Shown here: positions 14,708-36,866 of the stretch, one piece after another
Layout of the letters: the number at the start of each line of letters is the position of its first letter
Position numbering within the stretch: the first letter of the stretch is position 1
From: Minisyncoccota bacterium
GTDB taxonomy: Bacteria; Patescibacteriota; Minisyncoccia; Phycocordibacterales; PALSA-1337
DNA length: 56,023 bases
Assembly: GCA_028713005.1 (NCBI GenBank)
Contig: JAQTPC010000006.1
Span: forward strand, 1-56,023
Direction: 5' to 3'
Translations under genes and position numbers: made by a program
Notes under the pieces: model-generated
Told to the model about the DNA's origin: nothing
Seen by the model: the letters and a program-made list of their open reading frames with translations, nothing else
Database searches by the model: none

Positions 14708-14737
14708 ATTATATACTACTTATATCCTATTTGTCAA
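14708..14737 (-). promoter_or_regulatory. Consensus sigma70-type promoter for the PKD-repeat gene
   Basis: The minus strand shows TTGACA (14737..14732), an 18-nt spacer and TATAAT (14713..14708). Confidence 0.5.
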
Positions 14738-14785
14738 GTACCCCTATCCCCTGATTATTAGCCTTATTTTAAGGCCTGCTGTAGA

Positions 14786-14826
14786 TATAAAAATACACGC
14801 ATTGCTTTGAGCAGTGCGTGTATTTG
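14786..14826 (-). terminator. Intrinsic terminator after the SGNH-like gene
   Basis: An 11-bp stem AAATACACGCA / TGCGTGTATTT runs into a T-rich tract on the minus strand. Confidence 0.6.
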
Positions 14827-23944: not shown

Positions 23945-25171
23945 ATGACCACTAAAGATATACTCCACGAAACAATCTCCGCTCTCGCCGCAAACAAAGT
24001 GCGCACCACACTCACCATGCTCGGCATCATCATCGGCATCAGTTCAGTTATCATCATGGTATCGATCGGTCAGGGTGCACAAGCGTCGATCACTTCGCGT
24101 ATCCAGTCTATCGGTGCAAACTTGATCACCGTCTCCCCTGGTGCAACTCGTAGCTTTGGTTACGGCGCTTCAACAGGACGCGGCTCAGCAAAAACACTTA
24201 CTACCGAAGATGTGACAGCGATCACTGCTGATGTAAAGAACATTAATGCCGTCTCACCAGAGGTGACAGGTCGCTACCAAGTCACGGCAAAAGGCACAAA
24301 TACGAACACTTCTGTTGTTGGTGTGATGCCTGCGTATACGACTGTTCACAATACTTCAGTCGGTGATGGAGTCTTTATCTCAGATCAAGATGTGCAAAAT
24401 CGCACAAAGGTTGCTGTCATCGGACCAACTACGGCAAGTGACCTTTTTGGTGATGGTGTCGAAGCGGTCGGACAAACCTTACGTATCAATGGTATGGAAT
24501 TCAAAGTGATTGGTGTGACTGCCTCAAAAGGCACAAGCGGTATGAATAACCAAGATGACGCCATTTACATTCCCCTTTCTTCAGCACAATTATTTTTACT
24601 TGGCAGTTCAGCATATGTCACCTCACTCAGCATCTCTGCAACGGACTCAAGTGTTATGACTCAGGTGCAGACAGATATCACCGATCTTCTCATCACACGA
24701 CATAAGATAAAAGATGTTACCAAGCCTGACTTTAATGTACAAAATATGGCTGATATCGTTTCTACTGCTTCAAGTATCACCACCACATTCACATATCTCC
24801 TCGGGTCAGTTGCAGGCATATCGCTCGTAGTTGGTGGTATCGGTATCATGAACATGATGCTTACCACAGTGACTGAACGCACACGCGAGATCGGTCTACG
24901 CAAAGCAATCGGCGCAAAGCGTCGCGACATCAGCTTCCAGTTTCTCGCAGAAGCAGTGGCACTCACCGTAGTCGGCGGAGCAATCGGTGTGACACTTGGT
25001 TGGATTGTGTCGCACATCGTGACCGCGCTCGGCATACTGACGACGAGCATATCGTCAACATCAGTCATCCTCGCCTTCGGCGTATCAGCCTTTATTGGTA
25101 TCGTCTTTGGGTACTATCCTGCACGCAGAGCGTCGAGACTCAATCCGATTGAGGCGTTGAGATATGAGTAA
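23945..25171 (+). CDS. ABC transporter permease (MacB/FtsX family)
   Basis: It has a MacB_PCD-like extracytoplasmic domain and an FtsX C-terminus VGGIGIMNMMLTTVTERTREIGLRKAIGAKRRDI...PIEALRYE. Confidence 0.9.
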   Translation: MTTKDILHETISALAANKVRTTLTMLGIIIGISSVIIMVSIGQGAQASITSRIQSIGANLITVSPGATRSFGYGASTGRGSAKTLTTEDVTAITADVKNINAVSPEVTGRYQVTAKGTNTNTSVVGVMPAYTTVHNTSVGDGVFISDQDVQNRTKVAVIGPTTASDLFGDGVEAVGQTLRINGMEFKVIGVTASKGTSGMNNQDDAIYIPLSSAQLFLLGSSAYVTSLSISATDSSVMTQVQTDITDLLITRHKIKDVTKPDFNVQNMADIVSTASSITTTFTYLLGSVAGISLVVGGIGIMNMMLTTVTERTREIGLRKAIGAKRRDISFQFLAEAVALTVVGGAIGVTLGWIVSHIVTALGILTTSISSTSVILAFGVSAFIGIVFGYYPARRASRLNPIEALRYE

Positions 25172-25175
25172 GTAC

Positions 25176-25616
25176 CTAAAGTGTCTTTTTAATTTCCTCA
25201 ACAATCTTTATAAGTTCAACTTCACTCGTAGGTTCCCTATCGCCCGTACGATATAACATACTTCGTGGATCGTACCCGAGAACCCCTGCATCGCCCTCAG
25301 TTCGAGAAATAATATGCAAGTGAAAATGCGGTACTGATTGACCAGCAAGTACACCTTGATTCCATACTGAATTAAATCCTTGTGCACCAAAAGTCTTTTT
25401 AAGCGCACTCATTATTTGGTCAGCTAAACTTAATATCGCCAAGCGCTCCTCTGCAGTTAACTCTTGTAATGTGGCAACGCAACGTTTCGGTGCAATCAAA
25501 ATGTGTCCCGGTGTTATCGGGATATTTGTCGGAAAAGCCCACGCAAGATCGTTACTGATTATTTCGCGAGCCTTTATCTCTGGTTTTGAGCAAAATACGC
25601 AAGTCATAAAAATCAT
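25176..25616 (-). CDS. HIT-family nucleotide hydrolase/transferase
   Basis: CVFCSKPEI...PGHILIAPKR...VPHFHLHIISR shows the histidine triad. ATG 25607 is an alternative start. Confidence 0.85.
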   Translation of the reverse strand: MIFMTCVFCSKPEIKAREIISNDLAWAFPTNIPITPGHILIAPKRCVATLQELTAEERLAILSLADQIMSALKKTFGAQGFNSVWNQGVLAGQSVPHFHLHIISRTEGDAGVLGYDPRSMLYRTGDREPTSEVELIKIVEEIKKTL

Positions 25617-25692
25617 TATTGCTTATTTTTCACGTTTCCACAAACTACAATAAACTCAAAATGAACGTACTTACATATGCTAAAATATCCCC

Positions 25693-26382
25693 ATGAAAAT
25701 AATCCTCATCACTGGCATCAGTCGTGGTATAGGCAAAGCTCTCGCCGAAAAATATTTAGCAGAAGGCCACATAGTCATCGGCACATCAATAAACGGTAAA
25801 ATTGATTTTGAACACGAAAACCTGACAGTCTATAAATTGGATCTGTCAAAACCTCGATCGATTCTTAAATGCATCAAAAAGATAATTAAATCAGGTATTA
25901 AGATAGATATCATGCATAACAATGCCGGAGCATTATTTGACGATGAAGAGACTCATGTAATCGTAGATAAATTGCAAAGAACACTAATGGTTAACCTGAT
26001 TGGTACAATCGATTTTACTGAACAAATAATTAAAACTATACGGGACGATGGGCACATTGTGAACACTTCATCATCAGCTGGCTCATTAACGGAGACTGAC
26101 ATGAAAGATGCTTTGACTTCTCATTTTCCTTTTCATTATCCAGCATACAAGATTTCCAAGGCTGCAATAAATATGTACACGCGAACTTTGGCAATGAGAC
26201 TGGAACATGAAAAAACAGGGGTCACCGTCTCCTCAGTTCACCCTGGTTGGGTCAAGACAGACATGGGTGGCAACGACGCGCCTGTCCTCCCGTCCGAAGC
26301 TGCAGCAGACATCTACAAACTCGCTCTATCAAAACCTGAAACAGGACAATTTTGGTTCAAAGGACAAAAATATCCTTGGTAA
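25693..26382 (+). CDS. SDR-family short-chain oxidoreductase
   Basis: ITGISRGIGKALA (TGxxxGIG), NNAG, the YKISKAA catalytic Y-x3-K, and VHPGWVKTDM are present. Confidence 0.9.
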   Translation: MKIILITGISRGIGKALAEKYLAEGHIVIGTSINGKIDFEHENLTVYKLDLSKPRSILKCIKKIIKSGIKIDIMHNNAGALFDDEETHVIVDKLQRTLMVNLIGTIDFTEQIIKTIRDDGHIVNTSSSAGSLTETDMKDALTSHFPFHYPAYKISKAAINMYTRTLAMRLEHEKTGVTVSSVHPGWVKTDMGGNDAPVLPSEAAADIYKLALSKPETGQFWFKGQKYPW

Positions 26383-26383
26383 T

Positions 26384-26409
26384 AAAAAATCGGCCTGAGC
26401 CGATTTTTG
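26384..26409. terminator. Bidirectional intrinsic terminator between convergent genes
   Basis: AAAAAATCGGC-ctga-GCCGATTTTTG is flanked by an A-run and a T-run. Confidence 0.75.
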
Positions 26410-26411
26410 TT

Positions 26412-26762
26412 CTACGAAGTTCTCTTCATCGACACATCGACAACATTGTTATCGCTTGGATGCGTAGCGAACTGGCGCGCACCAAAACCAATCACCACTG
26501 AACCGATGATATATAAGATATAAAAGAATGCTGAGAGCGGGATACCGCCAACATAAAAGTCCAGACCGAACTGTGCTTCATATGAGATGAATGCCGCAAG
26601 CAAGACACCAATAGCAATGAGAAACATACCTAATGAAATGAGGCGAAGAGGCTTTCGGAGCAGATGCATAAATATGCCTGCAGACGTATAAAAATATGTT
26701 GCTGAGACAACGCCACAGATAACCGCCACGAAGATCAAAATGAGTTGTAATTTATCGGCCAT
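26412..26762 (-). CDS. Small integral membrane protein (about 4 TM)
   Basis: The start is trimmed to MADKLQLILIFVAVICGVVSATYFY. The upstream part of the track ORF overlaps the preceding gene. Confidence 0.55.
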   Translation of the reverse strand: MADKLQLILIFVAVICGVVSATYFYTSAGIFMHLLRKPLRLISLGMFLIAIGVLLAAFISYEAQFGLDFYVGGIPLSAFFYILYIIGSVVIGFGARQFATHPSDNNVVDVSMKRTS

Positions 26763-26799
26763 AATATTTAAATTAGCTATAGGTACATTATAGTACAAC

Positions 26800-27315
26800 C
26801 TACATTTTTCGACTATCGTATGCCCAGTGCATAAGCGCTTGGCGCTGACGGGTATGACACGTCTCATCTCCCGGGCGACAGTTGTGTGCTATCTGAGCTA
26901 TATGGCGCCTCATGGCCTTCCAACGCTTGATTTGACGGGCATCATCAGGATGTCTACGTCCCATATAATAACGACAATACCACTGGAACCAACCACGAGG
27001 ATCATCGGGATGTATCCACCCTTTTTCCTTCCAGACTGAAAGAGGTTGACTTGCATTCACACCAAAGAAGTTTAGCTTTGCATCGTGCTCATGAATCTCT
27101 GGAGAAGCGAGGTGTGCATTCTCAAACCATGCCTGAGGAAATTCATCCACACAATCACGCATATATACTCCACCGAATACACCAAGTTCAAACATCTCTT
27201 GTGGGGTGAGTTGTGGTTTGAAGTCTGGATCAAAGTTTTTTCCAACTGGTTCAGTCCGTTTGTAGATATATCCAGACTGCATCATATCATCAACTGTGAC
27301 TCGAGTAGCTTTCAT
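26800..27315 (-). CDS. Conserved hypothetical protein (Trp/Arg-rich; GWFQWYCRYYMGRRHPDD motif)
   Basis: A clean 171-aa ORF. The motif looks like a widespread uncharacterised family that I cannot name with confidence. Confidence 0.6.
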   Translation of the reverse strand: MKATRVTVDDMMQSGYIYKRTEPVGKNFDPDFKPQLTPQEMFELGVFGGVYMRDCVDEFPQAWFENAHLASPEIHEHDAKLNFFGVNASQPLSVWKEKGWIHPDDPRGWFQWYCRYYMGRRHPDDARQIKRWKAMRRHIAQIAHNCRPGDETCHTRQRQALMHWAYDSRKM

Positions 27316-27326
27316 AAAGAAATAAT

Positions 27327-28085
27327 TTACGCTTCAATCTTTGAGAAAAGATACGCACCAACTGCTATCGCAAGAACAACTACACCTGAAAGGACAAGCG
27401 CATCTGTGAAAAGACCGAAATGTGTAACTCCAGTAAGTACATGTCTCATAGCGTCCACACCGTACGTAAGCGGATTGATATCTGAAACAATACGGATAGC
27501 AGTAGGTGCCGTGTCGAGCGGAAAAAGTGCTCCTGCAAGAAAGAATAGAGGCATGACAAGTAGGTTCACAATGAGACCGAAGCCTTGAATATCCTGCATA
27601 AGTGATCCAAAAATAGTACCAAGTGCAGCAAAAATCACTGCAATGGTAAACATGACTACCAAACTCAGCAATGCTCCGATGATAGTCGTATGGAACCCGA
27701 CACAGAAAGTAATGAGAAGGACAATACTTCCCTGAAAAAATGCTGTCGTTGCTCCACCTAACGTGCGCCCAATCATAACAGCAGTGCGGCTCACAGGTGC
27801 GACCAGGGTCTCTTTGAGAAAACCAAATCGACGATCCCAGATGATCTCGATGCCAGAAAAAACTGCCGCAAACAATATACTCATAGCAATGATGCCAGGT
27901 GAAAGAAATAGTATATAATCCCCTCCTCCCCCTTTTTCAAATATTGGACCGAGGCCAAAACCAAGTACCAGAAGGAAAAGAAGTGGTTGACCGAGGGAGC
28001 CGATGATGCGCGACTTCGAACGAAAATATTTCTTTATCTGCCTAAGCCAGAGGATATAGATTGTAGTGAGAGTAGTTGAGTTCAT
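27327..28085 (-). CDS. ABC-2 type transporter permease
   Basis: Six hydrophobic segments, and it immediately follows the ATPase gene (3-nt gap). Confidence 0.85.
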   Translation of the reverse strand: MNSTTLTTIYILWLRQIKKYFRSKSRIIGSLGQPLLFLLVLGFGLGPIFEKGGGGDYILFLSPGIIAMSILFAAVFSGIEIIWDRRFGFLKETLVAPVSRTAVMIGRTLGGATTAFFQGSIVLLITFCVGFHTTIIGALLSLVVMFTIAVIFAALGTIFGSLMQDIQGFGLIVNLLVMPLFFLAGALFPLDTAPTAIRIVSDINPLTYGVDAMRHVLTGVTHFGLFTDALVLSGVVVLAIAVGAYLFSKIEA

Positions 28086-28088
28086 ATT

Positions 28089-28901
28089 CTATTTTTTATT
28101 GCCACCAAACATCTTGCGCATTGAACGGAGATGATCGACGGAGTCCACGCTCTCTTCGCGGATGTCATGACCAGTCAGCTTGATAAAAGCATCCTCCAAT
28201 GTAGTACCGCCATTTTTTGAAATGATACCTTGGACTGTATCGCTTGCCACCATCCCTCCGTGGTCTATGACGACAACATGATCAGCAACACGCTCAACTT
28301 CGTCCATATAATGTGTAGTAAAGAAAACGGTCAAACCCTTCTCAGCATTGAGCTTCTTTATATATGACCAGATATGATTGCGTGTCTGTGGATCGAGGCC
28401 AACTGTTGGCTCATCGAGAAATAGAACCGCTGGCGTATGGAGGAGACCACGCGCTATTTCGAGGCGACGCTTCATGCCACCGGAAAAGTTTTTTACAAAA
28501 TCATCTTTACGATCCCAGAGTTCGACAAATCTCAATAACTCCTCAATACTCGTCTTCGCTTCGCTTTTCGGTACACCGAAGATACCCGCATGAAAAGCCA
28601 TATTCTCATATGCAGAGAGATCGTCATCAAGGCTCGCGTCTTGAAAGACGATACCACATGATTTCCTCACTGCATGAGGATCCTTTGATGGATCAAAGCC
28701 ATTGATGGTGATAGTGCCAGATGTTGGAGCCAGAAGCGTCGTAAGCATCCTGATTGTAGTCGTCTTTCCTGCACCATTGGGACCAAGGAAAGCAAATGTA
28801 CTACCTTTTGGAACTTCAAATGACACATCCTTTACTGCCTCAAACCCACCTTTAAAGGTTTTGGTGAGATTCTGTACTGATATGGCTTGATTGGTACTCA
28901 T
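28089..28901 (-). CDS. ABC transporter ATP-binding protein (DrrA/ABC-2 type)
   Basis: Walker A GPNGAGKTTT, signature FSGGMKRRLEIARGL and Walker B VLFLDEPTVGLD are present. Confidence 0.95.
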   Translation of the reverse strand: MSTNQAISVQNLTKTFKGGFEAVKDVSFEVPKGSTFAFLGPNGAGKTTTIRMLTTLLAPTSGTITINGFDPSKDPHAVRKSCGIVFQDASLDDDLSAYENMAFHAGIFGVPKSEAKTSIEELLRFVELWDRKDDFVKNFSGGMKRRLEIARGLLHTPAVLFLDEPTVGLDPQTRNHIWSYIKKLNAEKGLTVFFTTHYMDEVERVADHVVVIDHGGMVASDTVQGIISKNGGTTLEDAFIKLTGHDIREESVDSVDHLRSMRKMFGGNKK

Positions 28902-28919
28902 TCCCCTATTTTACCATGG

Positions 28920-30113
28920 TTACTTGAGTATAGTGTAGAAATGATCAAATGTTTTTTGAAACTCACTAATCAAATAGGAATTATCTGTTACAAAAGCATT
29001 TTCATCATTATTATAAAATCCCCAGAGACTCCAGTTCTGAGAGCCAAAGACGAGCACCTTACCATCAGCGATAAGCGAGTGATGGTGGATATACGGAGCA
29101 AAATCATCTGGTAATACATCAATAGATTGAGCAGGTAGTTTTGTATCAAGTATTATTTCTAAGTTATTAAGACCAAGCTTCTCTTTTTGTTCCTGAAGAT
29201 ATGGGATCATCGACGCTTCCGTAGAAGCCGTAGCAACTTCAGCAATGATACGAACTTTCACGCCTGCCTGAACCCTCTTTACAACAGCAGAAGCAACTTG
29301 CCGATCAGTGATATCCCACATCATGAGATCAAGAGTTTTTTCAGATTTACCGATAATATCTATGATTCGATATTTTACTGCTTGTTTTCCAAAGCCCGGA
29401 GAAAACCATACTTCAATAAAACTATCTGTGTACTGTATCGTAGTGGCCCACGGATTGTACGTTGTGACTGCTAATTTTTTTGTCCCTGATATTTTCTGCT
29501 TAAGTAGATCAAATTCTTTTCCATAAACAGTTACCAAATCATGATCATGTGTCACCAAAAAATAACTCTGATTGTATTTTTCGCCCCAGGTAGTGAAATT
29601 AAAAGACCCTGTCGTCAGTTGCTCTGTAGAATATCCTCGATCAACAATCATGAACTTATCATGCATGTAAACTTTTTTAAGTGAATCGATTGCATCATAT
29701 TTACCCGCATCAATCCTTTGGATAGTAGTAGGTAAATCAGAGAATACATAATCATGTTGCTTAGCTTTTGAGGTATTGAGTACGAGCGTCACTTTTACCC
29801 CTCTTTTATCGGCGGCATATATCGCCTGTTTCAATTCATCTGAACTAAATGAAAAGATAGCCAATTCAAGCGTATGTTGAGCTGAATCAATCTGTTTTTT
29901 CAATATATCCAATGAGCCTGTCTGTCCAACGGTATTATTGAAATATATATCTGAATCAAAAGGATGCTGAACAATGATGCTTTCTTGTGGACCAAAAACA
30001 AAGACCCTTTTTTCATTACTGTACAGAGCAAACCTGACACTCCCATAAACTACAGTACCAGCTAAAACTAAAAAAATGAGAATTGTGTATTTAAGCTGTA
30101 AGGCGAACTTCAT
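28920..30113 (-). CDS. TM-anchored phospholipase D / HKD-superfamily protein
   Basis: The N-terminal TM is KYTILIFLVLAGTVVYGSV. The first HKD is YMHDKFMIVD...GSFN. The second is IHHHSLIADGKVLVFGSQN, with Ser in place of Lys. The start ATG (30113, alternatives 30128 and 30137) overlaps the upstream gene. Confidence 0.8.
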   Translation of the reverse strand: MKFALQLKYTILIFLVLAGTVVYGSVRFALYSNEKRVFVFGPQESIIVQHPFDSDIYFNNTVGQTGSLDILKKQIDSAQHTLELAIFSFSSDELKQAIYAADKRGVKVTLVLNTSKAKQHDYVFSDLPTTIQRIDAGKYDAIDSLKKVYMHDKFMIVDRGYSTEQLTTGSFNFTTWGEKYNQSYFLVTHDHDLVTVYGKEFDLLKQKISGTKKLAVTTYNPWATTIQYTDSFIEVWFSPGFGKQAVKYRIIDIIGKSEKTLDLMMWDITDRQVASAVVKRVQAGVKVRIIAEVATASTEASMIPYLQEQKEKLGLNNLEIILDTKLPAQSIDVLPDDFAPYIHHHSLIADGKVLVFGSQNWSLWGFYNNDENAFVTDNSYLISEFQKTFDHFYTILK

Positions 30114-31824
30114 TTTGTTCGATGACATAGCGCTCATTATATATGATTGAAAAATTTATTTCTCTTGAGAAGACAACGAGCGTAGATTCTGGAAGTTCAG
30201 CGTCCAAGATATGTAGCAATGCTGTTATATCTGCATACCCACTATCGACCCACTGATTATCAACAACGATCAATTGCGGTCGACTAATGATGCAGTGCAG
30301 AGTTTGAACTGCAAATAATAATGTTGGACTATCACTGAAAATTGAGAGCGGTTCGCCGATAAATCTCTTCTTGCTCCGAATCTTAGAAAAAACAGGATAT
30401 TTTTGGCATAGCGTATACACCCGTGCAATATCATCTTCAGTGATTTGCTGCATCTCTTTTGCAAAAATAATCTCACCGATAGTCTTTTCACTATATACGT
30501 GAGGAGCAAAAAAATAACGATTCGCATATTCTTGTGCCCATGTATTCCCATCAACCCTTTTTGCGTCGATCTTCACTACCCAGCCAAGCGGATTGAATAC
30601 TGCATTGCCAGTAAACAGACGTGCAAGAGCCGTCTTACCTGTATACGCCGCACCAGTAAATAAATACCTTTGTCCCCGACGAAGCGAGATAGAGACGCGC
30701 TTCATGTAATTCCCTTCGACAAATAACTTGATCTTATTTGAGATGAATGTGATATGGTTCCACGTATCTTTGTTTATCTGGCGAAGCGATGTTGCGCCCT
30801 CAGGTATAGCGAGAAACAAACCAAGCTTAAGTGGCAACAGATACAAACCTGTCTGAACTGACTCATACAAGAAACGGATAGCATAGAGCGAGATGATCGT
30901 AGCAAGTATAGTAGTAGCCGGGTCATACAAGAACGAAATCAACTCTGGATGAGAAAAGCTAATAATAATAAGGATGCTTGTGGCAGCAAATACCCCCGCA
31001 AAAAATACCCTATTAAGATACCGCAACCAAATATCACGACGTATTCTGAAATAGGTATCAACTCCGACACGAGCATCGAGCGCATCAAGTGCAGATTGCT
31101 CGCCTTGCAAAATCTTTGTGAATGACAGCTCTGAAAGAGTCAAGGTCACGTGACGTATCACCTGAGAGTATGAGGCAACCTCTCGGGAGATGAAATACCG
31201 GGCAATGCCATATGAGATTAGACCAACACAAACTCCTAGGAATACGAGAGCAGCAATGCCGATAATATAATGTGGACCCGCAATAATACTGAGTGATATC
31301 AATACAACAGCCATGATGACCCAACGTACACTGCCCAACAAACTATGATCGACGCCGAGCGATAATAACGGCAGATGATATGATACTTTAGCTATAAAAT
31401 CAGCCTTCTCTTCATTGGTAACTGATGTGTATGAGCGACGTAAAAGCACAGAAAAAAGACGTTTGCGAATATCGTTTATAAGACCGAGGACAAGGGTTCT
31501 TTCAAATTTGATAGTGAGATATGTCACACACAGATAAAGCAATGCGCCACAGAGCACAGAGATAATAAAGACAGATAGTGCTTTTGTATGAAGCGCATAG
31601 TATATCTGTTCGCGAATCGATCCATTGAGAAAGATGAGCACTCCGATTTCAATGATAGCTTGGGCAACTATAAGAGACGGTAGAATAAGGATTGAGCGCG
31701 TATTCTTTTGTAAAAACTGGCGTATATAATGCCAATGATGCCTCTCAAGCCTCATCGGACGGATAGACTGTTTTATGATGCGCCTCTGTTGATACAAGAG
31801 CGCCTGCCTGCCGATATTAAACAT
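30091..31824 (-). CDS. ABC-exporter-like protein (6-TM domain plus degenerate nucleotide-binding domain)
   Basis: The TMD runs from about ILILPSLIVAQAIIEIGVLIF to LGLFLAIPEG. In the NBD, Walker A is intact (GAAYTGKT), the signature is degenerate (LSIFSD), Walker B is LIVVDN (Asn in place of the catalytic Glu), and no H-loop His is recognisable. ATG 31824 overlaps the RT stop by 8 nt (ATGTTTAA). ATG 31755 is an alternative start. Confidence 0.75.
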   Translation of the reverse strand: MFNIGRQALLYQQRRIIKQSIRPMRLERHHWHYIRQFLQKNTRSILILPSLIVAQAIIEIGVLIFLNGSIREQIYYALHTKALSVFIISVLCGALLYLCVTYLTIKFERTLVLGLINDIRKRLFSVLLRRSYTSVTNEEKADFIAKVSYHLPLLSLGVDHSLLGSVRWVIMAVVLISLSIIAGPHYIIGIAALVFLGVCVGLISYGIARYFISREVASYSQVIRHVTLTLSELSFTKILQGEQSALDALDARVGVDTYFRIRRDIWLRYLNRVFFAGVFAATSILIIISFSHPELISFLYDPATTILATIISLYAIRFLYESVQTGLYLLPLKLGLFLAIPEGATSLRQINKDTWNHITFISNKIKLFVEGNYMKRVSISLRRGQRYLFTGAAYTGKTALARLFTGNAVFNPLGWVVKIDAKRVDGNTWAQEYANRYFFAPHVYSEKTIGEIIFAKEMQQITEDDIARVYTLCQKYPVFSKIRSKKRFIGEPLSIFSDSPTLLFAVQTLHCIISRPQLIVVDNQWVDSGYADITALLHILDAELPESTLVVFSREINFSIIYNERYVIEQNEVRLTA

Positions 31825-33046
31825 GTTTTTTAGGATAACGTACTTCCCTATAATACTCAAAGAGACTGCGGATTCCAGTCTTCCTCAAAACAGGCTCAAC
31901 TTCCCGACGATTTTTTGGCGTATATCTGCCCTTAAAATAAACCGTCAGCATATGAAAAAGCTTTTCAGAGAACTGCTTCATATATGCATCATCATCAACC
32001 AATCTCTTTTGATCAATAAGCTGAGTAAATTGATTATCAAAATTATCGGTTCCCTCCATAATGAGAGAGCGGATATGTTTCATCTTTGCTGAAACGCTTT
32101 TTGCGCGCGAAGAAAATATATCACGCTTCCATGATGCCAACGCCTTATTTCTTGAGCTTTCATCAAAACTAATCTTTCCCGCACGAAAGGAATATCCCAG
32201 AAATTTAAAAGGTTGGGTGCTCGGGATAAGTTTCGCCTTATCAGTATTGAGTCTTACTTTGAGATCCTGAACTGTCTTTGCGAGCTCACTGCCCACATGT
32301 GCTACTTTTTTTGCATCTTTATCCATAGCGATGATATCGTCTCCGACACGACGATAGAGCGCAACGGACTTCCCTGCCCATTTATCAAAATCATCCATAT
32401 AGAAGTTTGAAAGAAGCGCATACAACGGCGTTCCCGTGAGGACACCTCGAGGTCGTTCTATTAAAACTCCATCTTCCAATGTATTGGTTTTAATAAAAAG
32501 CTCCAGTAACCGGAGCGTCCGTGCATCAAGCCCAAGTCCAAGCAGTTTTTTCAAAAGAATGTCATGGTCAATTGTATCAGCATAATCCGAAATATCAGTC
32601 ACCAGTACATGATCTTCGCCATAATATCTCTTGTATCTGCGGGTGGCGCTTCGAGCCGCATAGTATGAAGGGTGAGAAGAGCGATATGAAAAAAGAAAAG
32701 GAGAAAAATAACTATCGAAAAATGGCAAGAGTACGCGATATATCGCTTCAGCTTTTATGCGCTCTTTGATCGAGTAGACGAATATCTTTCTCTTTTTGCC
32801 ATTCTTCTTGGGAATAGTCTGCATGTACGCAGGACGTATCTTTTTTAGATCACGCATTTCTTGCCTGATCACAGGAATTTCTTCAGTAGAAGAAAAATTG
32901 AGGGTATTGAGCTTAATGCCGTCGACTCCTCTGTACCTGCCCGCTTTTGATTCCTCGTCAAATTTTCTCACCAGATCAGTATATGCATGCGTGATATTTT
33001 CTGATGACGTGATCAGATCGAAGGCGTTTTCAGGAAAGACATTCAT
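31817..33046 (-). CDS. Reverse transcriptase (unclassified; not obviously retron, DGR or group II type)
   Basis: RT motifs: IPKKNGKKRKIF, FSYRSSHPSYYAA, VLVTDISDYADTIDHDILL, RGVLTGTPLYALLSNFYMDDF, ALYRRVGDDIIAM, VRLNTDKAKLI and FKFLGYSF, plus a helical C-terminal extension of about 110 aa. The start is trimmed from GTG 33169 to ATG 33046 (MNVFPENAF). Confidence 0.9.
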   Translation of the reverse strand: MNVFPENAFDLITSSENITHAYTDLVRKFDEESKAGRYRGVDGIKLNTLNFSSTEEIPVIRQEMRDLKKIRPAYMQTIPKKNGKKRKIFVYSIKERIKAEAIYRVLLPFFDSYFSPFLFSYRSSHPSYYAARSATRRYKRYYGEDHVLVTDISDYADTIDHDILLKKLLGLGLDARTLRLLELFIKTNTLEDGVLIERPRGVLTGTPLYALLSNFYMDDFDKWAGKSVALYRRVGDDIIAMDKDAKKVAHVGSELAKTVQDLKVRLNTDKAKLIPSTQPFKFLGYSFRAGKISFDESSRNKALASWKRDIFSSRAKSVSAKMKHIRSLIMEGTDNFDNQFTQLIDQKRLVDDDAYMKQFSEKLFHMLTVYFKGRYTPKNRREVEPVLRKTGIRSLFEYYREVRYPKKHV

Positions 33047-33065
33047 ATAGGAAACCGTAAACACT

Positions 33066-33257
33066 GATAGCACCACCGGAGAGCGACAGATACCGAACGG
33101 CCTGTCGCCATTCAAAAAGATAATTGGCGAAGCAAAATAATAAATTTTGCTTCGGCAAAAATAAATCACTTCACTTCTGACACCGGCATTAGGCGGTTGA
33201 TAATGTCAGAAGCCGGTAATTGATAATGCGCAACTAAGTTTCTTCGGTGATGCTATC
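33066..33257 (-). ncRNA. Candidate structured RT-associated ncRNA (retron/DRT-like architecture)
   Basis: On the minus strand, GAUAGCAUCACCG (33257..33245) pairs with CGGUGGUGCUAUC (33078..33066). That is 13 bp including one G-U, which would be a C-A mismatch on the plus strand. The helix encloses three hairpins: 33174..33212 (9 bp), 33128..33154 (11 bp) and 33083..33108 (7 bp). The structure ends 20 nt before the RT ATG. Confidence 0.5.
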
Positions 33258-33298
33258 AACGTTCACAGTATGTAAACATTCTAACATAACCACTCTGG

Positions 33299-35008
33299 CT
33301 ATGAATTTTTGACAAGATGCTTGAAAGCGTATTCGAGTGTACCTCCGACTTTCTTGCCAGGGTTGAATATTCCCTGTGGATCCCAAATCTTTTTAACCTC
33401 TTCAAAAAGCCTATACACCTCTTCACCATACTGCATCTTTACGAATGGTGTACGAATGATGCCATCATTATGCTCGCCACTAATCGAGCCGTTAAACTCA
33501 TGGACGAGCTTATACACCTTTACTGACAAATCTTCGATGATGGTATGTGACTTTGGGTCGTTCAGATTCATGAGCGGAATGATATGAAAGTTTCCATCTC
33601 CCACGTGTCCCGCAATCGTATAGGTGATGTCATGTTCATACTGACCGAGGATAGCGTAGAGGCGTGGTAAGAACTTTGGCAATGTCTCGGGTGGTACAAC
33701 AAAGTCATCGATGAATGGTGCGGTACGGACACCTTTGACATGCTGACGCAGCATATTGAAACTTTCACGACGAATGATCCAGTACTTATTTGATTGACGA
33801 GCTGTTTTGGTGACCAGGGACTTTTCATGGATATCTTTGAGCGAATCATGTGCAGCGATTGCGAGACGGAGAGCTTCTTCATCGGTATCGGCAGTGAACT
33901 CAGCCATAAGGACCATCTTTGGCACGCCGCCACGGACAACTGCGAGCATCTCAGGGATGAACTGAAAACCAAGTGAGATAATATTACCCTTCATTCTCTT
34001 GATAAGTGAAGGAAGGAACTTAAGAGCAACCTTAAATGTATGATCATCATACGACTCGAAGCTTTCTGGTTTGAACTGCATGATATGTGTCGCTGTTGGT
34101 GCAAGCTGTGCGAGGTCTTTGAGGAAGACTACCACCATGTGTGAATACTTCTTTGGCTTAACAAGTGCAAACTCAATCTCAGTGACGAGGCCGAGCGTGC
34201 CCTGAGAACCAACGATCATCTTTGTCAGATCAAATATACCCTTTTCCTTGTCCCAGACATTCCAGAGAAAATAGCCACTTGAGTTTTTCGAAACAACTGG
34301 CTTGGCTTTCTGTAGGATGTCATAGTTTTTGTCGAGCAACTCATGCATCTTACGGTATATGTCGCTTTCAAAACTAGGAAGTTTCTTTGCTTGCTCCAAC
34401 TGATGCATAGTGAGCGGTTGGAAGGTATGTTCTTTACCGTCTGCAGTAACCATGTTGAGACGACGAACATAGCGTTCAGTCTTGCCGTAGGTGAGCGTCT
34501 TTTCTCCTCCAGAATTGTTCGCCACCATACCACCGACAGTACAGAGCTCGCGCGATGCAGGATAACTCGGCATGATCTGACCACCTGCTGCGAGAGTGAC
34601 TTTATCAAAATCGCGATAGTATACACCAGGCTCAGTCACTGCGTAACCACTGATTTCGACGCCAACAATAGGATCAAGAGTTTTTTCTTTGACTTCCTTT
34701 ATGTGACTGAAATTTTTGGTGAAATCAACAACGATGGACTCTGTGAGCGGACCACCTGACATATCTGTACCAGCTGAGCGCGCGGTGAGGGTAAGCTTTG
34801 GTTCGGCAATTGAACTATTTGAACGGTGAAGAGCTTCATCGGCGACATAACGGACGAGTTTTTCTACATCAGCAGTATTTTTTGGTGTGACAACGACAGA
34901 TGGCCTTACTTCGAACAGACTCGCATCATGACTGGCCTTATCGAGACTGTACTCACTGGTACTGACATCCCCTTCTATTATTTTTGAAAGTTTTTTTATG
35001 TCCAACAT
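33299..35008 (-). CDS. FAD-linked oxidase (GlcD / FAD_binding_4 family)
   Basis: ARSAGTDMSGGPL, GGMVANNSGGEKT and the C-terminal GSISGEHNDG are present. ATG 35008 has TATAAT 6 nt upstream. Confidence 0.9.
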   Translation of the reverse strand: MLDIKKLSKIIEGDVSTSEYSLDKASHDASLFEVRPSVVVTPKNTADVEKLVRYVADEALHRSNSSIAEPKLTLTARSAGTDMSGGPLTESIVVDFTKNFSHIKEVKEKTLDPIVGVEISGYAVTEPGVYYRDFDKVTLAAGGQIMPSYPASRELCTVGGMVANNSGGEKTLTYGKTERYVRRLNMVTADGKEHTFQPLTMHQLEQAKKLPSFESDIYRKMHELLDKNYDILQKAKPVVSKNSSGYFLWNVWDKEKGIFDLTKMIVGSQGTLGLVTEIEFALVKPKKYSHMVVVFLKDLAQLAPTATHIMQFKPESFESYDDHTFKVALKFLPSLIKRMKGNIISLGFQFIPEMLAVVRGGVPKMVLMAEFTADTDEEALRLAIAAHDSLKDIHEKSLVTKTARQSNKYWIIRRESFNMLRQHVKGVRTAPFIDDFVVPPETLPKFLPRLYAILGQYEHDITYTIAGHVGDGNFHIIPLMNLNDPKSHTIIEDLSVKVYKLVHEFNGSISGEHNDGIIRTPFVKMQYGEEVYRLFEEVKKIWDPQGIFNPGKKVGGTLEYAFKHLVKNS

Positions 35009-35096
35009 GGGAATATTATAACATTGAATTGACAAATCGTAAGTGCGTGTTAGTTTGAAATAAACGCAGTTCAACAAAAAAACAATAGGAGTAGCT

Positions 35097-35711
35097 ATGA
35101 GTCACCATATACCTGAAATAATAATCGGCGGTTTCCTCGGAACACTCCTGGGAATACTTACACTTCACCGCACCTTCCGTCCGCTCTCGAAAACAAAGAG
35201 CGTCGAAATTGTCACTGAAATACATCCGCCGGGAAGCGGATTACGGTCAGTCGATGGCACGGAGGTTGCAATCAGTATTGGACCAAAGCGGGACGCATTA
35301 CCCCCATCAAACGAACACATCGCACTTGAATCACCTTCAAAAAAGACCAGGGTTTCAAAGTGCGGCCATGTAGGACCGAAGACATATCACTTGAACCTTT
35401 ACGGTATACGCAGTATTGAATTTAGTGCCAAAGAGGCTGAGTGTCCCTCGTGCTTAACGGCGCGAATTAAAAAAGAGATCATTCGCTGTGCAGTATGTGG
35501 CCTCCCTATCTGTCCAGGTGAAGGGGTAGCTCTTTACTCGATAGAAAGCCCGGGAATCCGCAAAGAAATTGCCACTATCGTTGATGATGCAGTTATCGGC
35601 TGTCTACGTTGGAGTTGCTGTCCGAGCGGAGGATTCTTCGCAGGTCATTGGACTGAAAAGGGATTCACCCCTATTGATTGGAAAGAATACGAGTTGGAAA
35701 CAACGAAATGA
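35097..35711 (+). CDS. TM-anchored Cys-rich hypothetical protein (possible zinc-ribbon)
   Basis: The N-terminal TM is IIIGGFLGTLLGILTL. Cys pairs are CPSC, CAVCGLPIC and CLRWSCC. AGGAG lies 5 nt upstream of the ATG, which is unusual for this window. The gene is GC-richer by eye. Confidence 0.6.
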   Translation: MSHHIPEIIIGGFLGTLLGILTLHRTFRPLSKTKSVEIVTEIHPPGSGLRSVDGTEVAISIGPKRDALPPSNEHIALESPSKKTRVSKCGHVGPKTYHLNLYGIRSIEFSAKEAECPSCLTARIKKEIIRCAVCGLPICPGEGVALYSIESPGIRKEIATIVDDAVIGCLRWSCCPSGGFFAGHWTEKGFTPIDWKEYELETTK

Positions 35712-35725
35712 TCACCTCAAACACA

Positions 35726-35762
35726 AAGACCAAAAGCTCATCGGGCTTACGGTCTTTTTTTA
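35726..35762 (+). terminator. Intrinsic terminator
   Basis: AAGACC...GGTCTT stem followed by TTTTTTT. Confidence 0.6.
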
Positions 35763-35935
35763 TTTAAAATAAAAAAACCACCCTGTTTCTGGACTATTTT
35801 AGCTACCATACCCACTCCAAAAGCGCATCCACAAGATATGAACCTACCCCCTTGTTATCCCCTGGAAGAGAGCTATGATACGACGAGTTCCGTAGTTCTT
35901 TTCAAAAACAACCAACCACCACACCTCCTTATATT

Positions 35936-36811
35936 ATGAAAAATACCCTTAAGAAGGCCTATTATATGGCCTGTTTATTGGTTATCTCACACACGGTAGC
36001 CTGGGCAGATACGACGAATAGCGTCGCCAATACCCCAGGCACAACTCCCAACTACTCACTCTTGGAACAACCCTACGTTTCGCGCACATGGGTTGATACC
36101 TTTGAGGATCAACTCGACAAACGCGTTGCCGTGAACATCTTTGATTCATTCATGAGCAGCCAGGCGAACGTTCGGTGGACCCGAACGATAGGCAAAGAAG
36201 GATACCGCGCAAATGACGCTTACGCACATGCAGGAAGATCAGCTCTTCAGCATTCGTTGCAGTCGAGCATCCGCGAAACCATCGTCCAGTCTGTGCCTGG
36301 TGTCATCGAATCAAAAAACTGGTTCAGCCGATTGTTCGTAGGTTCTTTGGCTCACACCACTGAATCCTCAATCCGCCCGGCAGGGATAACTCCCATTGCT
36401 GCGCAAATGTCTTGGTGGGATGATACCCTATCAAAAAACCAAGTCTCTTACGGATCACGAGCGATTGATGGAGATTATCTGTATCTCGATAGCCGTTTCG
36501 GTCATTGGGGTAACGACAATCGTTCTGTCGGCGTGGCGCTGTTACGTCTCGACGGGGACTTGTTCAGTCTTCAGTCAAAAGCTGAAGCGCAGGTCTCATT
36601 CTTCTTGCCATGGTCATCGACGCTCACCGCAGGCGTGTCTTACATGATCACTGATCTGCATGACAGCAACAAAGGTTTGGAATGGTCGGTTGGACTGACT
36701 CATGTGATCAGTAAACGCCGTTACACTACAAGCGCTGCATATCTCGCGCTGTCGACCAACACTGAAAGTCACGCCCTTCTCGCTCAAGGTGGACTCAATC
36801 TGTTTTGGTAA
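35936..36811 (+). CDS. Secreted hypothetical protein with a beta-barrel-like C-terminus (ends ...GGLNLFW)
   Basis: The signal peptide is MKNTLKKAYYMACLLVISHTVAWA. The C-terminal half has an alternating pattern and the protein ends in aromatic residues F-W. It is GC-richer by eye. Confidence 0.6.
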   Translation: MKNTLKKAYYMACLLVISHTVAWADTTNSVANTPGTTPNYSLLEQPYVSRTWVDTFEDQLDKRVAVNIFDSFMSSQANVRWTRTIGKEGYRANDAYAHAGRSALQHSLQSSIRETIVQSVPGVIESKNWFSRLFVGSLAHTTESSIRPAGITPIAAQMSWWDDTLSKNQVSYGSRAIDGDYLYLDSRFGHWGNDNRSVGVALLRLDGDLFSLQSKAEAQVSFFLPWSSTLTAGVSYMITDLHDSNKGLEWSVGLTHVISKRRYTTSAAYLALSTNTESHALLAQGGLNLFW

Positions 36812-36818
36812 AGCACAA

Positions 36819-36850
36819 AGCCCGCTATCCTTTTGGTAGCGGGCTTTTTT
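36819..36850 (+). terminator. Intrinsic terminator
   Basis: AGCCCGCTA-loop-TAGCGGGCT followed by TTTTTT. Confidence 0.75.
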
Positions 36851-36866
36851 AATTGAAACGATATAA

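Follow-up and report, generated by a model that had tools for sequence, protein, structure and literature searches.

The described systems closest to the locus studied here are ncRNA-dependent defence reverse transcriptases (RTs), retrons and RTs of the group II intron type. DRT10 consists of an RT, a non-coding RNA (ncRNA) and a membrane SLATT protein (bioRxiv 10.1101/2025.10.16.682844; 10.64898/2026.04.29.721553). G2L4, a free-standing G2L RT, functions in repair (PMC11761039), and the G2L classes, like our locus, have no intron RNA (PMC2602772). The RT that we describe shares a size of about 410-430 aa with group II intron RTs and the G2L RTs (G2L1-5, RT-Cas1, G2L4). It is a free-standing enzyme encoded beside a structured ncRNA, as are the ~400-aa RTs of DRT10 (UG17) and of the Class 2 UG/Abi group (UG26, DRT9/UG28, DRT2); its gene is followed by a tightly coupled, overlapping membrane-protein gene, as in DRT10, and the order ncRNA, RT and effector genes is that of retrons. 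Unlike the UG/DRT systems, whose partners are SLATT or Vsr-like proteins (PMC9226505), it is accompanied by an ABC-exporter-like protein and a PLD protein, its ncRNA has no Rfam relative, its hosts are CPR bacteria and it has no defence-island context.

The window analysed, a stretch of 56,023 nt from a Minisyncoccota bacterium, carries this unit on the minus strand (Table 1). The initial annotation had proposed a candidate novel RT-based unit whose reading frames are coupled, a proposal upheld by the co-occurrence of the genes, by their overlaps and by the conservation of the RNA.

Table 1. Features of the unit, with window coordinates and the basis of each assignment.
Feature	Coordinates	Strand	Basis
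Whole unit, promoter-like site to PLD	28920-33305	minus	
Promoter-like site	33278..33305	minus	consensus scan only
Structured ncRNA	33052..33271	minus	MFE, RNAalifold, covariance model
Reverse transcriptase (RT), 409 aa from ATG	31817..33046	minus	RVT_1, motifs
ABC type-IV-exporter-like half-transporter (ORF2), 577 aa from ATG	30091..31824	minus	fold, PDB profiles
TM-anchored tandem PLD, 405 aa	28920..30137	minus	PLDc_2 x2

The RT stop codon TAA (31819-31817) and the ATG of ORF2 (31824) overlap by 8 nt (ATGTTTAA), as had been noted; ORF2 has an alternative start upstream, a TTG at 31860. The ORF2 stop codon (30093-30091) also overlaps the PLD start, and the 23 nt previously given for this overlap hold for one of three ATGs (30113), the other two (30128 and 30137) giving 38 or 47 nt. 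Overlapping frames recur in the related loci, between RT and ORF2 in 58/69 and between ORF2 and PLD in 60/66. An ABC-2 pair, whose membership had been left open, does follow the PLD gene after a gap of 18 nt, but both this pair and a FAD oxidase are outside the RT-ABC-PLD unit. The block had also been called AT-rich, and its GC content is slightly low (0.376-0.418 vs 0.43-0.45 typical of the window); this is not diagnostic because equally low values occur elsewhere in the window.

The RT matches Pfam RVT_1 at 1e-15 and contains every palm motif that had been quoted for it, VGDD included. It comprises RT0-RT7, with the N-terminal RT0 motif present, and a family-specific C-terminal region of ~80 aa. 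Motif C reads Y-R-R-V-G-D-D with VGDD invariant, and D192, Y272, R274, G276, D277 and D278 show no or almost no variation among 107 homologues. By its motifs, the enzyme is catalytically intact. The residue at the steric-gate position is aromatic in the same homologues (Y in 96, F in 11) and, together with the invariant GDD, argues for DNA synthesis by this RT.

Its closest characterised relatives are group II intron RTs. In a PDB profile search, RT0 and RT1-7 aligned from residue 3 to 327 with this group (7uim, 1.4e-37; 6ar1, 4e-37), which includes the E. rectale and GsI-IIC RTs. Unlike group II intron RTs, it has VGDD instead of YADD or YIDD in motif C and no domain X (maturase) signature, and it scores 139.5 bits with TIGR04416, under the 300-bit cutoff. 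The absence of group II maturase and endonuclease domains had been pointed out before; indeed, no GIIM or HNH domain was found in 31 members of the RT family even at E<=1. For each of the 31 members tested, RT_UG26 (1e-35 to 1e-39), UG17/DRT10 (1e-29 to 1e-31) and Drt9 (1e-23 to 1e-26) ranked among the top PADLOC RT models. For the RT of the window the UG/DRT models give up to ~120 bits, a match at the level of the superfamily and not of the family, and no better than that of generic RT or group II intron models. The retron RT models give ~31 bits against a 235-bit cutoff. Judged from these profiles, the RT is clearly group II intron-like, yet it is a member of no known family. Unlike the G2L classes, for none of which we have found such an arrangement described, it is accompanied by a conserved ncRNA of its own and by two membrane-protein partners.

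The structured RNA upstream of the RT had been estimated at ~190 nt and placed 20 nt before the gene. Its structure is well supported (MFE -91.9 kcal/mol, z = -6.96; 0/200 shuffles as good), while its extent has to be corrected to ~215 nt (213-220 nt; covariance-model match 33055-33267), with the 3' end 6-8 nt before the RT ATG. A long closing stem P1 (33269-33245 paired with 33078-33054) encloses a multi-helix junction containing, in this order, a conserved GAAAC junction, P2/P3 with the loop CCGCCUAAUGCCGG, the element GUGAAGUGAU, a perfect hairpin P4 of variable sequence (about 33156-33126), the element UUUGAAUGG and a last hairpin P5 (33109-33083) with the loop GGCCGUUCGGUAUC. As in retrons, the ends of the RNA are paired at length in the manner of a1/a2 and followed by a conserved G-containing junction, and the RNA holds a long perfect hairpin of variable sequence; unlike in the msr-msd order of retrons, the conserved P5 follows the variable hairpin and precedes the 3' strand of the closing stem.

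Conservation of this RNA had been expected and is evident from an alignment of 16 relatives (RNAalifold), where 34/38 pairs show compensatory changes. There, 93.8% of cells are paired and the covariation score reaches 0.60, against 30-47% and 0.11-0.17, respectively, in slid controls. The pairing and covariation result was repeated with 55 sequences. A covariance model, R1, matches in 98/142 loci, directly upstream of the RT and always on the RT strand, at a median distance of 8 nt from the RT start, and the same plan also folds in more distant loci. No Rfam family matches the ncRNA. The promoter-like site consists of TTCATA, a 16-nt spacer and the extended -10 TGtTAGAAT; by this consensus match the transcription start is predicted at ~33271, the first base of the closing stem. 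In 41/98 related loci, too, an extended -10 (TGnTAnnnT) precedes the RNA by no more than 45 nt.

The initial annotation had expected the partners of the RT to co-occur, and they do. A pattern-limited scan of 185,579 species genomes gave at least 76 loci, with ORF2 in 74/76 and PLD in 71/76. Clustering across all 160 sources gave 156 RT loci, 142 with ORF2 and 128 with PLD; in 21 of the 30 loci without both partners the RT adjoins a contig end, and we read the other nine as carrying candidate partner-position genes missed by clustering. The pairwise identities of RT, ORF2 and PLD correlate in 107 triads (r 0.92-0.94), with mean identities of 40, 32 and 35%, respectively. The promoter-like site, the ncRNA and the three genes make up a self-contained operon, passed on and diversifying as a single unit. 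Since the triad is conserved, the frames overlap, the identities correlate and the ncRNA covaries upstream of the RT, the four parts almost certainly form one functional unit.

The module occurs mostly in Patescibacteria, with a patchy distribution across CPR classes, and outside them in Omnitrophota and in a Longimicrobiales genome (2.96-Mb contig). Single small genomes can carry 2-3 divergent paralogous modules. The flanks of 28 diverse loci encode mostly housekeeping functions, such as DNA pol III alpha, RNase HII, ClpP, ligase and aldolase; the 103 flanking proteins give few and generic PADLOC matches, and neither integrase nor transposase is among the families listed. The loci lie outside defence islands. 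A single locus was found in 2.9 million viral contigs and none in the plasmids searched.

The protein encoded by ORF2 was described earlier as six TM helices plus a nucleotide-binding domain (NBD) with an intact Walker A and a degenerate signature, Walker B and H-loop, and the AF2 model, Foldseek and 107 homologues all agree with this description. The model (pLDDT 79.6) shows six long helices and the NBD, and its full length matches ABCB10, MsbA, TAP, TM287/288 and PglK. The PDB profile search found the MsbA TMD (1e-8) and the PCAT1 NBD (2e-6). There is no Pfam or PADLOC match for the protein of the window, and some homologues carry PF00664. Like type IV ABC exporters (MsbA, ABCB10, TAP, TM287/288), it has the full-length fold with a C-terminal NBD and retains Walker A (G-K-[TS]; K in 94/107), the A-loop Tyr and the Walker B Asp (105/107). 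Unlike them, it has lost the catalytic Glu, the residue after the Walker B Asp being Asn in 93/107 and never Glu; the signature region is unconserved and the H-loop position is His in 0/107, so both sites of a homodimer would be degenerate. The protein, of the homodimer type, is probably nucleotide-binding yet hydrolysis-dead. Also unlike those exporters, the family is tiny, isolated and always RT-linked: at E<=1e-30 a search of 1.84e9 proteins yields 88 representatives, and the other matches listed reach at most 55 bits.

The third gene encodes, as had been proposed, a TM-anchored HKD/PLD protein, with two PLDc_2 domains (3e-40) and an N-terminal TM helix in 107/107 sequences. Each half is a Nuc-like HKD domain. 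The best NCBIfam match is the nuclease NucT, and the best PDB profiles are Nuc (1byr, 2e-33), Zucchini/MitoPLD (8e-32) and NucT (6e-27). In contrast with Nuc, NucT and Zucchini, it forms a pseudo-dimer from a single chain, and its gene belongs to an RT operon; its first motif is HxKxxxxD (HKD) and its second HxHxxxxD (HHD), both invariant in 107 sequences. Foldseek matches of the AF2 model (pLDDT 93) include PLD 7e0m, the 5' exonucleases PLD3/PLD4 and vaccinia F13. The flanks of the TM helix carry 5.3 K+R on the N side vs 2.2 on the C side (N>C in 99/107), and the catalytic domain is predicted to be extracytoplasmic (N-in/C-out). Nuc and NucT are secreted or periplasmic, and PLD3/PLD4 are type II membrane proteins in which an N-terminal anchor holds a tandem PLD on the non-cytoplasmic side, the architecture predicted here.

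For the function of the unit, the initial annotation drew an analogy with retrons and DRT systems. On that analogy, an accessory conflict system directed against phages or mobile genetic elements, of the abortive-infection or exclusion kind, comes close to an even chance. Our best guess is that it would function in the manner of DRT10 or of a retron, the usual effector being replaced by the ABC-like/PLD pair. Like the RTs of retrons and Class 2 DRT systems, the RT would bind the ncRNA that directly precedes its gene, and part of the ncRNA may serve, again by analogy, as template and perhaps as primer for the synthesis of a defined DNA. Either the RT-RNA-DNA particle or the product would then act on the degenerate NBDs on the cytoplasmic side of the ABC-like dimer, which translation and stoichiometry would couple to the membrane PLD, the membrane pair being the output device. 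The RT_UG26, UG17/DRT10 and Drt9 matches support a kinship to ncRNA-dependent defence RTs. The patchy distribution, the divergent paralogues in one genome, the fast divergence and the recurrence of PLD-family proteins in defence systems also speak for a conflict system, and the PLD matches the defence proteins DrmC, DpdK and MkoC. This reading is weakened by the housekeeping flanks and by the rarity on viral and plasmid DNA. Furthermore, with its catalytic domain probably outside the cell, the PLD fits poorly as a simple cytoplasmic effector nuclease and would be out of the reach of cytoplasmic phage or host DNA. We know of no characterised defence system with a membrane protein of the ABC-exporter fold as effector.

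This orientation of the PLD, together with its nearness to Nuc, NucT and Zucchini and its resemblance in fold and architecture to the ssDNA exonucleases PLD3/PLD4, is what an envelope process other than defence would lead one to expect. The RT would make DNA, RNA-DNA or protein-linked DNA from the ncRNA, an ABC-derived channel would pass or present this product across the membrane, and the outward-facing enzyme would trim or release it, for surface or extracellular DNA, for the attachment of episymbiotic CPR bacteria to their hosts or for their signalling, or as a link to DNA uptake and salvage. The exporter fold of ORF2 is complete, the context is housekeeping, and outgroups of the PLD are fused to lamin-tail, T9SS-sorting or SNase domains, as is typical of secreted nucleases, one of them being named ComE. 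Nevertheless, this process is rather unlikely: ORF2 has lost the catalytic Glu and the His needed for a transport cycle, no type-IV ABC exporter is known to us to transport nucleic acids, the rarity of the module speaks against a core CPR function, and pilin or competence genes are not enriched next to it over the local background (23/488 vs 14/473, p = 0.18).

The ncRNA might also be a cis-acting leader rather than a template, for example an autoregulatory RT-binding site like group II intron DIVa or a riboswitch-like element, with the RT serving other substrates like the domesticated G2L4 RT in DNA repair. Group II intron RTs, which this RT resembles, bind a stem-loop overlapping their own ribosome-binding site, and since the ncRNA ends so near the start codon, with no terminator between the two at this locus, the simplest view is that it forms the 5' UTR of the operon's mRNA. 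That it is nothing else seems improbable, because ~215 nt with five covarying helices are far beyond the size of a simple operator, two tandem copies of the whole ncRNA, present in six loci, would be odd for a leader, and the variable perfect hairpin P4 in a conserved scaffold resembles retron template or msd-type elements. To our knowledge, G2L4-type RTs have neither a conserved RNA partner nor membrane partners.

CPR bacteria depend on scavenged lipids, and a relative of MsbA-like flippases could remodel lipids together with a PLD/cardiolipin-synthase-like enzyme, having recruited the RT; the substrate of the phosphodiesterase would then be phospholipids and not nucleic acids. The best matches of ORF2 do include the flippases MsbA, ABCB4 and PglK, the PLD fold matches include phospholipases D and phosphatidylserine synthase, and JGI labels homologues 'cardiolipin synthase-like'. 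The profiles, however, favour nucleases (1e-27 to 1e-33) over phospholipases (1e-7 or weaker), no NCBIfam cardiolipin-synthase model matches the PLD, the hydrolysis residues are absent from ORF2, and an obligatory, co-evolving RT and ncRNA would be left unexplained, which makes a lipid role very improbable. Finally, a decayed or unusual mobile group II intron or another retroelement with cargo genes, suggested by the closest relatives of the RT and by the several copies per genome, is hardly credible, since a search of 27000-34000 with Rfam, even at E<=1, detects no group II RNA domains and no terminal or DGR TR/VR repeats were found at the locus, and since the overlap of the RT 3' end with ORF2 leaves no room for domains V and VI, maturase and En domains are absent, RTs of same-genome copies are 36-62% identical and thus not recent insertions, and synteny is stable within lineages.

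The initial annotation did not know of an ABC-like protein and a PLD as an effector pair, and a PADLOC run of the kind it had proposed returned superfamily-level RT matches. For the RNA, RT, ABC-like protein and PLD together, we have found no PADLOC, NCBIfam, Pfam or Rfam model and no paper. This combination is a candidate novel RT-based system, found mostly in Patescibacteria.

The ncRNA, the RT, the ABC-like protein (ORF2) and the PLD constitute a four-part unit that is conserved, translationally linked and co-evolving. The search with the RT protein yielded 144 relatives of about 400 aa, with identities down to 32%, and the loci sampled came from one-genome-per-species bacterial and archaeal genomes (76), metagenomes (77), closer relatives (6) and viral contigs (1). 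The grouping proposed in the initial annotation recurs in these loci, since the clustering of the ORFs from the 160 sources rendered only three near-universal clusters, i.e., RT (156 loci), ORF2 (142 loci) and PLD (128 loci), the next commonest cluster being present in 29 loci only. In the genome set, tblastn detected an ORF2 homologue in 74 and a PLD homologue in 71 of the 76 loci. The RT adjoins a contig end in 21 of the 30 loci lacking both partners; in the other nine, our reading is that the genes in the partner positions went unrecognised by the clustering.

The gene order RT, ORF2, PLD on one strand is maintained in nearly all loci, with overlapping frames at the RT/ORF2 junction in 58 of 69 loci (median -14 nt) and at the ORF2/PLD junction in 60 of 66 (median -29 nt). 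Across the 107 complete triads, pairwise identity in any one of the three proteins tracks that in the others, with correlations of 0.92-0.94. There is also a small distant branch in which the ORF2-PLD pair is located on the strand opposite to the RT, either divergently (L052, L067, L071 and L076, whose divergent starts lie about 450-560 nt apart) or convergently (L069). ORF2 is split into two consecutive ORFs in L065, L067, L072, L127, L129 and L135; frameshifting, pseudogenisation or faulty assembly could account for this.

According to the record titles, the hosts are overwhelmingly Patescibacteria/CPR (Paceibacteria, Falkowbacteria, Magasanikbacteria, Peregrinibacteria, Saccharibacteria). 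Outside the CPR, the titles name Omnitrophota (two) and Longimicrobiales (a single locus, on a contig of 2.96 Mb). Several genomes carry two or three modules, the RT identity between copies being only 36-62%. Many TPA "binchicken" MAGs titled "uncultured Gammaproteobacteria" (L006-L008, L010, L011, L016, L020, L023, L024, L026, L028 and L029, among others) share the module synteny with Patescibacteria-titled MAGs, as exemplified by L021, L022, L025 and L028, and these titles are probably mislabelled.

Regarding the layout in the window, the Pfam scan recognised RVT_1 in the RT and two PLDc_2 domains in the PLD. Both frame overlaps that had been claimed are present. The RT stop TAA (31819-31817) overlaps the ORF2 ATG (31824) within ATGTTTAA, as read directly at the junction, and the overlap between the ORF2 stop (30093-30091) and the PLD frame amounts to 23 nt, as originally described, or else to 38 or 47 nt, according to the ATG, out of three, that is taken as the PLD start. 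The ABC ATPase gene does start 18 nt after the PLD stop; the ABC-2 exporter pair to which the initial annotation referred was rejected as a member of the unit, since this neighbour is not conserved across loci. The FAD oxidase was rejected as well, since it recurs only in L154, the closest relative. The block had also been described as AT-rich. A GC dip exists (0.376-0.418 vs. about 0.43-0.45), but it is small and other parts of the window are equally low, so composition says little, and an AT-rich island or signature of horizontal transfer was discarded. The module has neither TR/VR-type nor terminal repeats on its two sides. The 903-aa protein encoded elsewhere in the window looks like a large surface protein unrelated to the module.

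Features of the module and of its surroundings in the window (ncRNA elements are listed 5' to 3')
Feature	Positions	Strand	Description
RT	31817-33046	minus	409 aa counted from the ATG; a start at a more upstream in-frame GTG would extend into the ncRNA
ORF2	30091-31824/31860	minus	577-589 aa; no annotation obtained
PLD	28920-30137	minus	405 aa
PLD second motif	29070-29093		PLD residues 351-358
ncRNA	33052-33271	minus	
ncRNA, match of covariance model R1	33055-33267	minus	only match in the window
ncRNA element 1			P1 closing stem, 15-25 bp, variable sequence
ncRNA element 2			GAAAC junction
ncRNA element 3			P2/P3, conserved loop (CCGCCUAAUGCCGG)
ncRNA element 4			single-stranded motif GUGAAAUGAU
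ncRNA element 5			P4, very stable, often perfect hairpin, variable in length and sequence
ncRNA element 6			motif UUUGAAUGAU
ncRNA element 7			P5, conserved hairpin, loop GGCCGUUUGGUAUC
ncRNA element 8			3' strand of P1, ends a few nt before the RT ATG
ABC-2 exporter pair	27327-28901		
FAD oxidase	33299-35077		
Ser/Thr-rich protein	36867-39578	minus	903 aa, N-terminal hydrophobic segment
Fourth tRNA	54225-54307	plus	found by Rfam (48.7 bits), without ARAGORN call

The ncRNA is under strong structural selection. The FAD-oxidase gene and the RT are separated by a 252-nt spacer that folds with an MFE of -91.9 kcal/mol (z = -6.96), a stability reached by none of 200 shuffles, and the 300 nt upstream of the RT rendered the same fold plan every time in relatives ranging from 100% down to 44% RT identity. 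The conservation of the upstream RNA structure, on which the proposal of the initial annotation depended, was confirmed in 16 relatives: RNAalifold on their MAFFT alignment predicted 38 pairs, 34 of them with compensatory changes. In these 16 sequences, 93.8% of the cells are paired in the named structure vs. 30-47% when the partners are slid, and the covariation score is 0.60 vs. 0.11-0.17, a value attained by none of 500 shuffles. With 55 model-aligned sequences, whose alignment is fitted to the model, 93.5% are paired and all 38 pairs show compensatory changes.

The covariance model R1, derived from the 16 sequences, recovers 98 loci out of the 142 with enough upstream sequence, always on the RT strand and at a median of 8 nt from the RT start. 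Most of the 44 misses involve the remotest RTs (largely at 31-40% identity). Nine missed loci were folded and inspected: in four, AAAAC and internal hairpins come after a long closing stem, and in three more a long-range stem is all that is seen. In the opposite-strand branch R1 detects no ncRNA, although the RT of three of the four divergent loci (L052, L067 and L071) is preceded by predicted long-range stems. The sequence-only search (nhmmer) reached just the closest loci, and thus the covariance model was needed. No Rfam match was obtained for the ncRNA at gathering score or at E ≤ 5, and no further copy of the variable hairpin sequence was found in the window.

Six loci (L001, L014, L017, L074, L097 and L101) contain two full-length ncRNA copies in tandem upstream of a single RT, for instance at 7540-7732 and 7772-7969 in L001, which argues that the ncRNA is a module in its own right and not a simple leader. 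In the window, a promoter-like site with an extended -10 box ends 7 nt before P1, and no terminator-like site was found between the ncRNA and the RT; similar extended -10 boxes precede the ncRNA in 41 of the 98 loci. The ncRNA may or may not be of the retron msr-msd type, which is closed by a1/a2 inverted repeats: it lies upstream of the RT, is closed by a 15-25-bp stem, contains a variable hairpin and covaries, its helices follow an order other than that of msr-msd, and it does not match any Rfam retron model.

The RT is under selection for catalysis. The 107 homologues show little or no variation in the Asp of motif A and in the Y-x-R-V-G-D-D of motif C, and the residue that aligns with the aromatic "steric gate" of group II RTs is Tyr (96) or Phe (11), which, judging from sugar selection by polymerases, argues for the synthesis of DNA rather than RNA. 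Similarity to group II RTs is clear along RT0-RT7, and the last 80 residues or so are family-specific. Residues 3-327 align with the E. rectale intron RT, a stretch that includes the N-terminal RT0, a motif typical of group II and non-LTR RTs. The faint matches to the viral Pfam model RdRP_1 observed in 10 of 31 RT members (best 7e-5; P0003, P0006, P0009, P0019 and P0066, among others) probably arise through the V-G-D-D/GDD of motif C.

The placement of the RT against HMMs of retron, UG/DRT, DGR, group II and CRISPR-associated RTs, suggested in the initial annotation, rendered no family-level assignment. In NCBIfam, the group II intron RT/maturase model TIGR04416 scored 139.5 bits, below its 300-bit cutoff, followed by Drt3a (56 bits), Drt2 (53 bits) and retron_St85_RT (31.4 bits vs. 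a 235-bit cutoff). In PADLOC, the generic RT model (135 bits) was followed by RT_UG26 (119), RT-Cas1 (103), UG17 (98) and Drt9 (81), with the retron RT models far below the others and the same ranking in all 31 members tested. The matches to RT_UG26 (1e-35 to 1e-39) and UG17 (1e-29 to 1e-31) in the 31 members are partial, superfamily-level and below the generic RT model. The PDB profile search pointed to the group II intron RTs 7uim and 6ar1 (1e-37) and to Cas6-RT-Cas1 (1e-31), followed by DRT9 (1e-20), DRT2 (4e-13) and G2L4 (3e-11), and the only relatives found in the plasmid search were group II intron RTs with 24-27% identity. By these profile scores, the RT would fall in no described RT family at family level, and we read it as a new domesticated group II intron-like family, approximately equidistant from the intron RTs, the CRISPR RTs and UG26/UG17.

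It is worth considering whether the RT belongs to a mobile element. A mobile group II intron was excluded by the TIGR04416 score together with the lack of intron RNA and of maturase or endonuclease domains. The Rfam group II models gave no match at gathering score in the whole window or at E ≤ 1 in 27000-34000, no GIIM (maturase) or HNH domain was detected in the 31 members at E ≤ 1, and the RT stop overlaps the ORF2 start, so that domains V and VI would not fit in between. A DGR was also excluded, given that no direct repeat longer than 29 nt exists within 24000-38000 and that no DGR-type model appeared among the RT matches. Thus, neither the RNA nor the TR/VR repeats that would have turned the proposal of a new system into one of these known elements were found.

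The ORF2 of the window gave no Pfam or PADLOC match, but some of its homologues carry PF00664, and a profile built with 23 homologues matched the transmembrane domain of MsbA (1e-8) and the nucleotide-binding domain (NBD) of PCAT1 (2e-6). The AlphaFold2 model (pLDDT 79.6, pTM 0.67) displays six long helices and an NBD, and Foldseek aligned it over its full length to ABCB10, MsbA, TAP, TM287/288 and PglK (E about 1e-13, TM 0.45-0.56). The predicted structure therefore corresponds to the type IV ABC exporter fold, with a six-helix TMD and a C-terminal NBD. As had been noticed from the window sequence, this NBD is degenerate. Among the 107 homologues, the A-loop Tyr is found in 94, the Walker A G-K-[TS] is retained, with K in 94, and the Walker B Asp is present in 105, but the next residue is Asn (93), Ser, His or Ala, never the catalytic Glu; the signature region is unconserved and the H-loop position is never His. 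The family therefore lacks the residues of a catalytically competent NBD (Walker B Asp-Glu, LSGGQ, H-loop His), and a homodimer of ORF2 would have two degenerate sites. Thus, ORF2 might bind nucleotide without a normal hydrolysis cycle, as E-to-Q mutants do. When its profile was compared with 1.84 billion representatives, 88 proteins appeared at E ≤ 1e-30 and the remaining matches listed did not exceed 55 bits, so by these scores the family is small and far from the mainstream ABC exporters.

By similarity, the PLD is of the nuclease type, its second motif being modified. Each half matches Nuc-type PLD domains, the best NCBIfam match is the nuclease NucT, followed by DrmC and DpdK, and the PDB profile search rendered Nuc (1byr, 2e-33), Zucchini/MitoPLD (8e-32) and NucT (6e-27), with phospholipases D at 1e-7 or weaker. 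This profile similarity to Nuc, Zucchini and NucT favours a nuclease substrate over a lipid. The AF2 model (pLDDT 93) is a complete two-lobe PLD, most similar to the bacterial PLD 7e0m, to the ssDNA 5' exonucleases PLD3/PLD4 and to vaccinia F13. The canonical PLD superfamily has two HxKxxxxD motifs per active site, whereas here the first motif is an invariant HxKxxxxD and the second is HxHxxxxD, with Lys replaced by His, in 107 of 107 homologues. We know of no characterised enzyme of the PLD family with such an asymmetric HKD/HHD site. A hydrophobic N-terminal helix is present in all 107 proteins, with 5.3 Lys+Arg in the 15 residues before it vs. 2.2 after it (N>C in 99 of 107), suggesting by the positive-inside rule that the catalytic domain is located outside the cytoplasm. 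Beyond the triad family, the similarity falls sharply from 271 to 95 bits, and the outgroups, which are fused to lamin-tail, T9SS-sorting or SNase domains or are named ComE, might be secreted nucleases.

The genes surrounding the module are ordinary. The closer relatives show LepA, MurJ, TsaD, IleRS, HtrA and DsbB, the 28 diverse loci include DNA pol III alpha, RNase HII, ClpP and ligase, and the Longimicrobiales locus has metabolic-gene flanks. PADLOC gave only scattered, generic matches on the 103 flanking proteins of the 28 diverse loci, and no integrase or transposase appeared among the flanking families listed for them; a defence-island context was not observed, the flanks being housekeeping genes, and carriage by phages or plasmids was limited to one IMG/VR locus and no plasmid. 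The commonest flanking family is that of prepilin-like genes (7 of the 103 proteins), and genes resembling pilins or pseudopilins adjoin many modules. The Omnitrophota locus L001 encodes Fic + T2SS-G fusion proteins on both sides of the module (5861-7246 and 13371-14813), and small N_methyl proteins follow the PLD in several CPR loci (L156, L157 and L158). A link with pilins or competence was nevertheless rejected, since there was no enrichment over more distant genes of the same loci (23/488 vs. 14/473, p = 0.18).

By analogy with retrons, DRT2, DRT9 and DRT10, the RT would bind the module ncRNA and copy part of it, and the RT-RNA-DNA state would be read by the membrane pair formed by ORF2 and the PLD. 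We tentatively favour a conflict (defence) function for the module, in agreement with its patchy occurrence across phyla, the presence of several divergent paralogues in individual small genomes, its rapid divergence and the kinship of the RT to UG26/UG17. The lack of a defence-island or mobile-element context, the apparently extracellular location predicted for the PLD and the absence of any precedent for an effector with exporter fold do not fit well with defence, and leave some probability to an export or envelope-processing reading. In such an RT-driven device for nucleic-acid export or display, which we consider rather improbable, the DNA made by the RT from the ncRNA would be handed to an ATP-binding, non-hydrolysing channel derived from an ABC exporter, after which a membrane-anchored Nuc/PLD3-like enzyme would process it extracellularly. 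A cis-regulatory ncRNA and a lipid-remodelling membrane pair are also possible, but they explain less.

The combination of RT, ncRNA, ABC-like protein and PLD appears to be new, as initially proposed. No models for the module were found in PADLOC 2.0, NCBIfam 20, Pfam or Rfam 15, and no description of it was found in the open-access and bioRxiv literature on RTs with ABC, PLD, Patescibacteria or G2L. The early RT surveys described the G2L classes without ABC-like or PLD-type partners (PMC2602772), and in the UG/Abi survey UG17 has a SLATT partner and UG26 only an occasional Vsr-like nuclease neighbour (PMC9226505), in contrast with the ABC-like and PLD partners of this module. The logic of RT, ncRNA and effector gene is already known; the novelty resides in the families of the RT and of the ncRNA, in the pair of partners, in the topology predicted and in the range of hosts, and there is a real chance that the module is more than a variation on that logic.

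Each of the domesticated bacterial RTs with dedicated ncRNAs (retrons, DRT2, DRT9, DRT10) brought to light an unexpected route of DNA synthesis, and such RTs now serve as tools for genome engineering; to our knowledge the accessory biology of CPR/Patescibacteria is almost unexplored. The module, whose components are all small and well delimited, would add an RT family that is compact (409 aa), group II intron-like and unusual in its VGDD active site, an ncRNA family (about 215 nt) absent from Rfam and very strongly supported by covariation, and an unprecedented pair composed of an exporter-fold ABC protein devoid of hydrolysis residues and an HKD/HHD PLD predicted to face outwards. If it is a defence system, it would extend RT-based immunity to a new membrane effector logic. 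If, on the contrary, the DNA product is exported, this would be a new kind of process altogether, and ultra-small episymbiotic bacteria could put defined DNA on, or beyond, their own surface.
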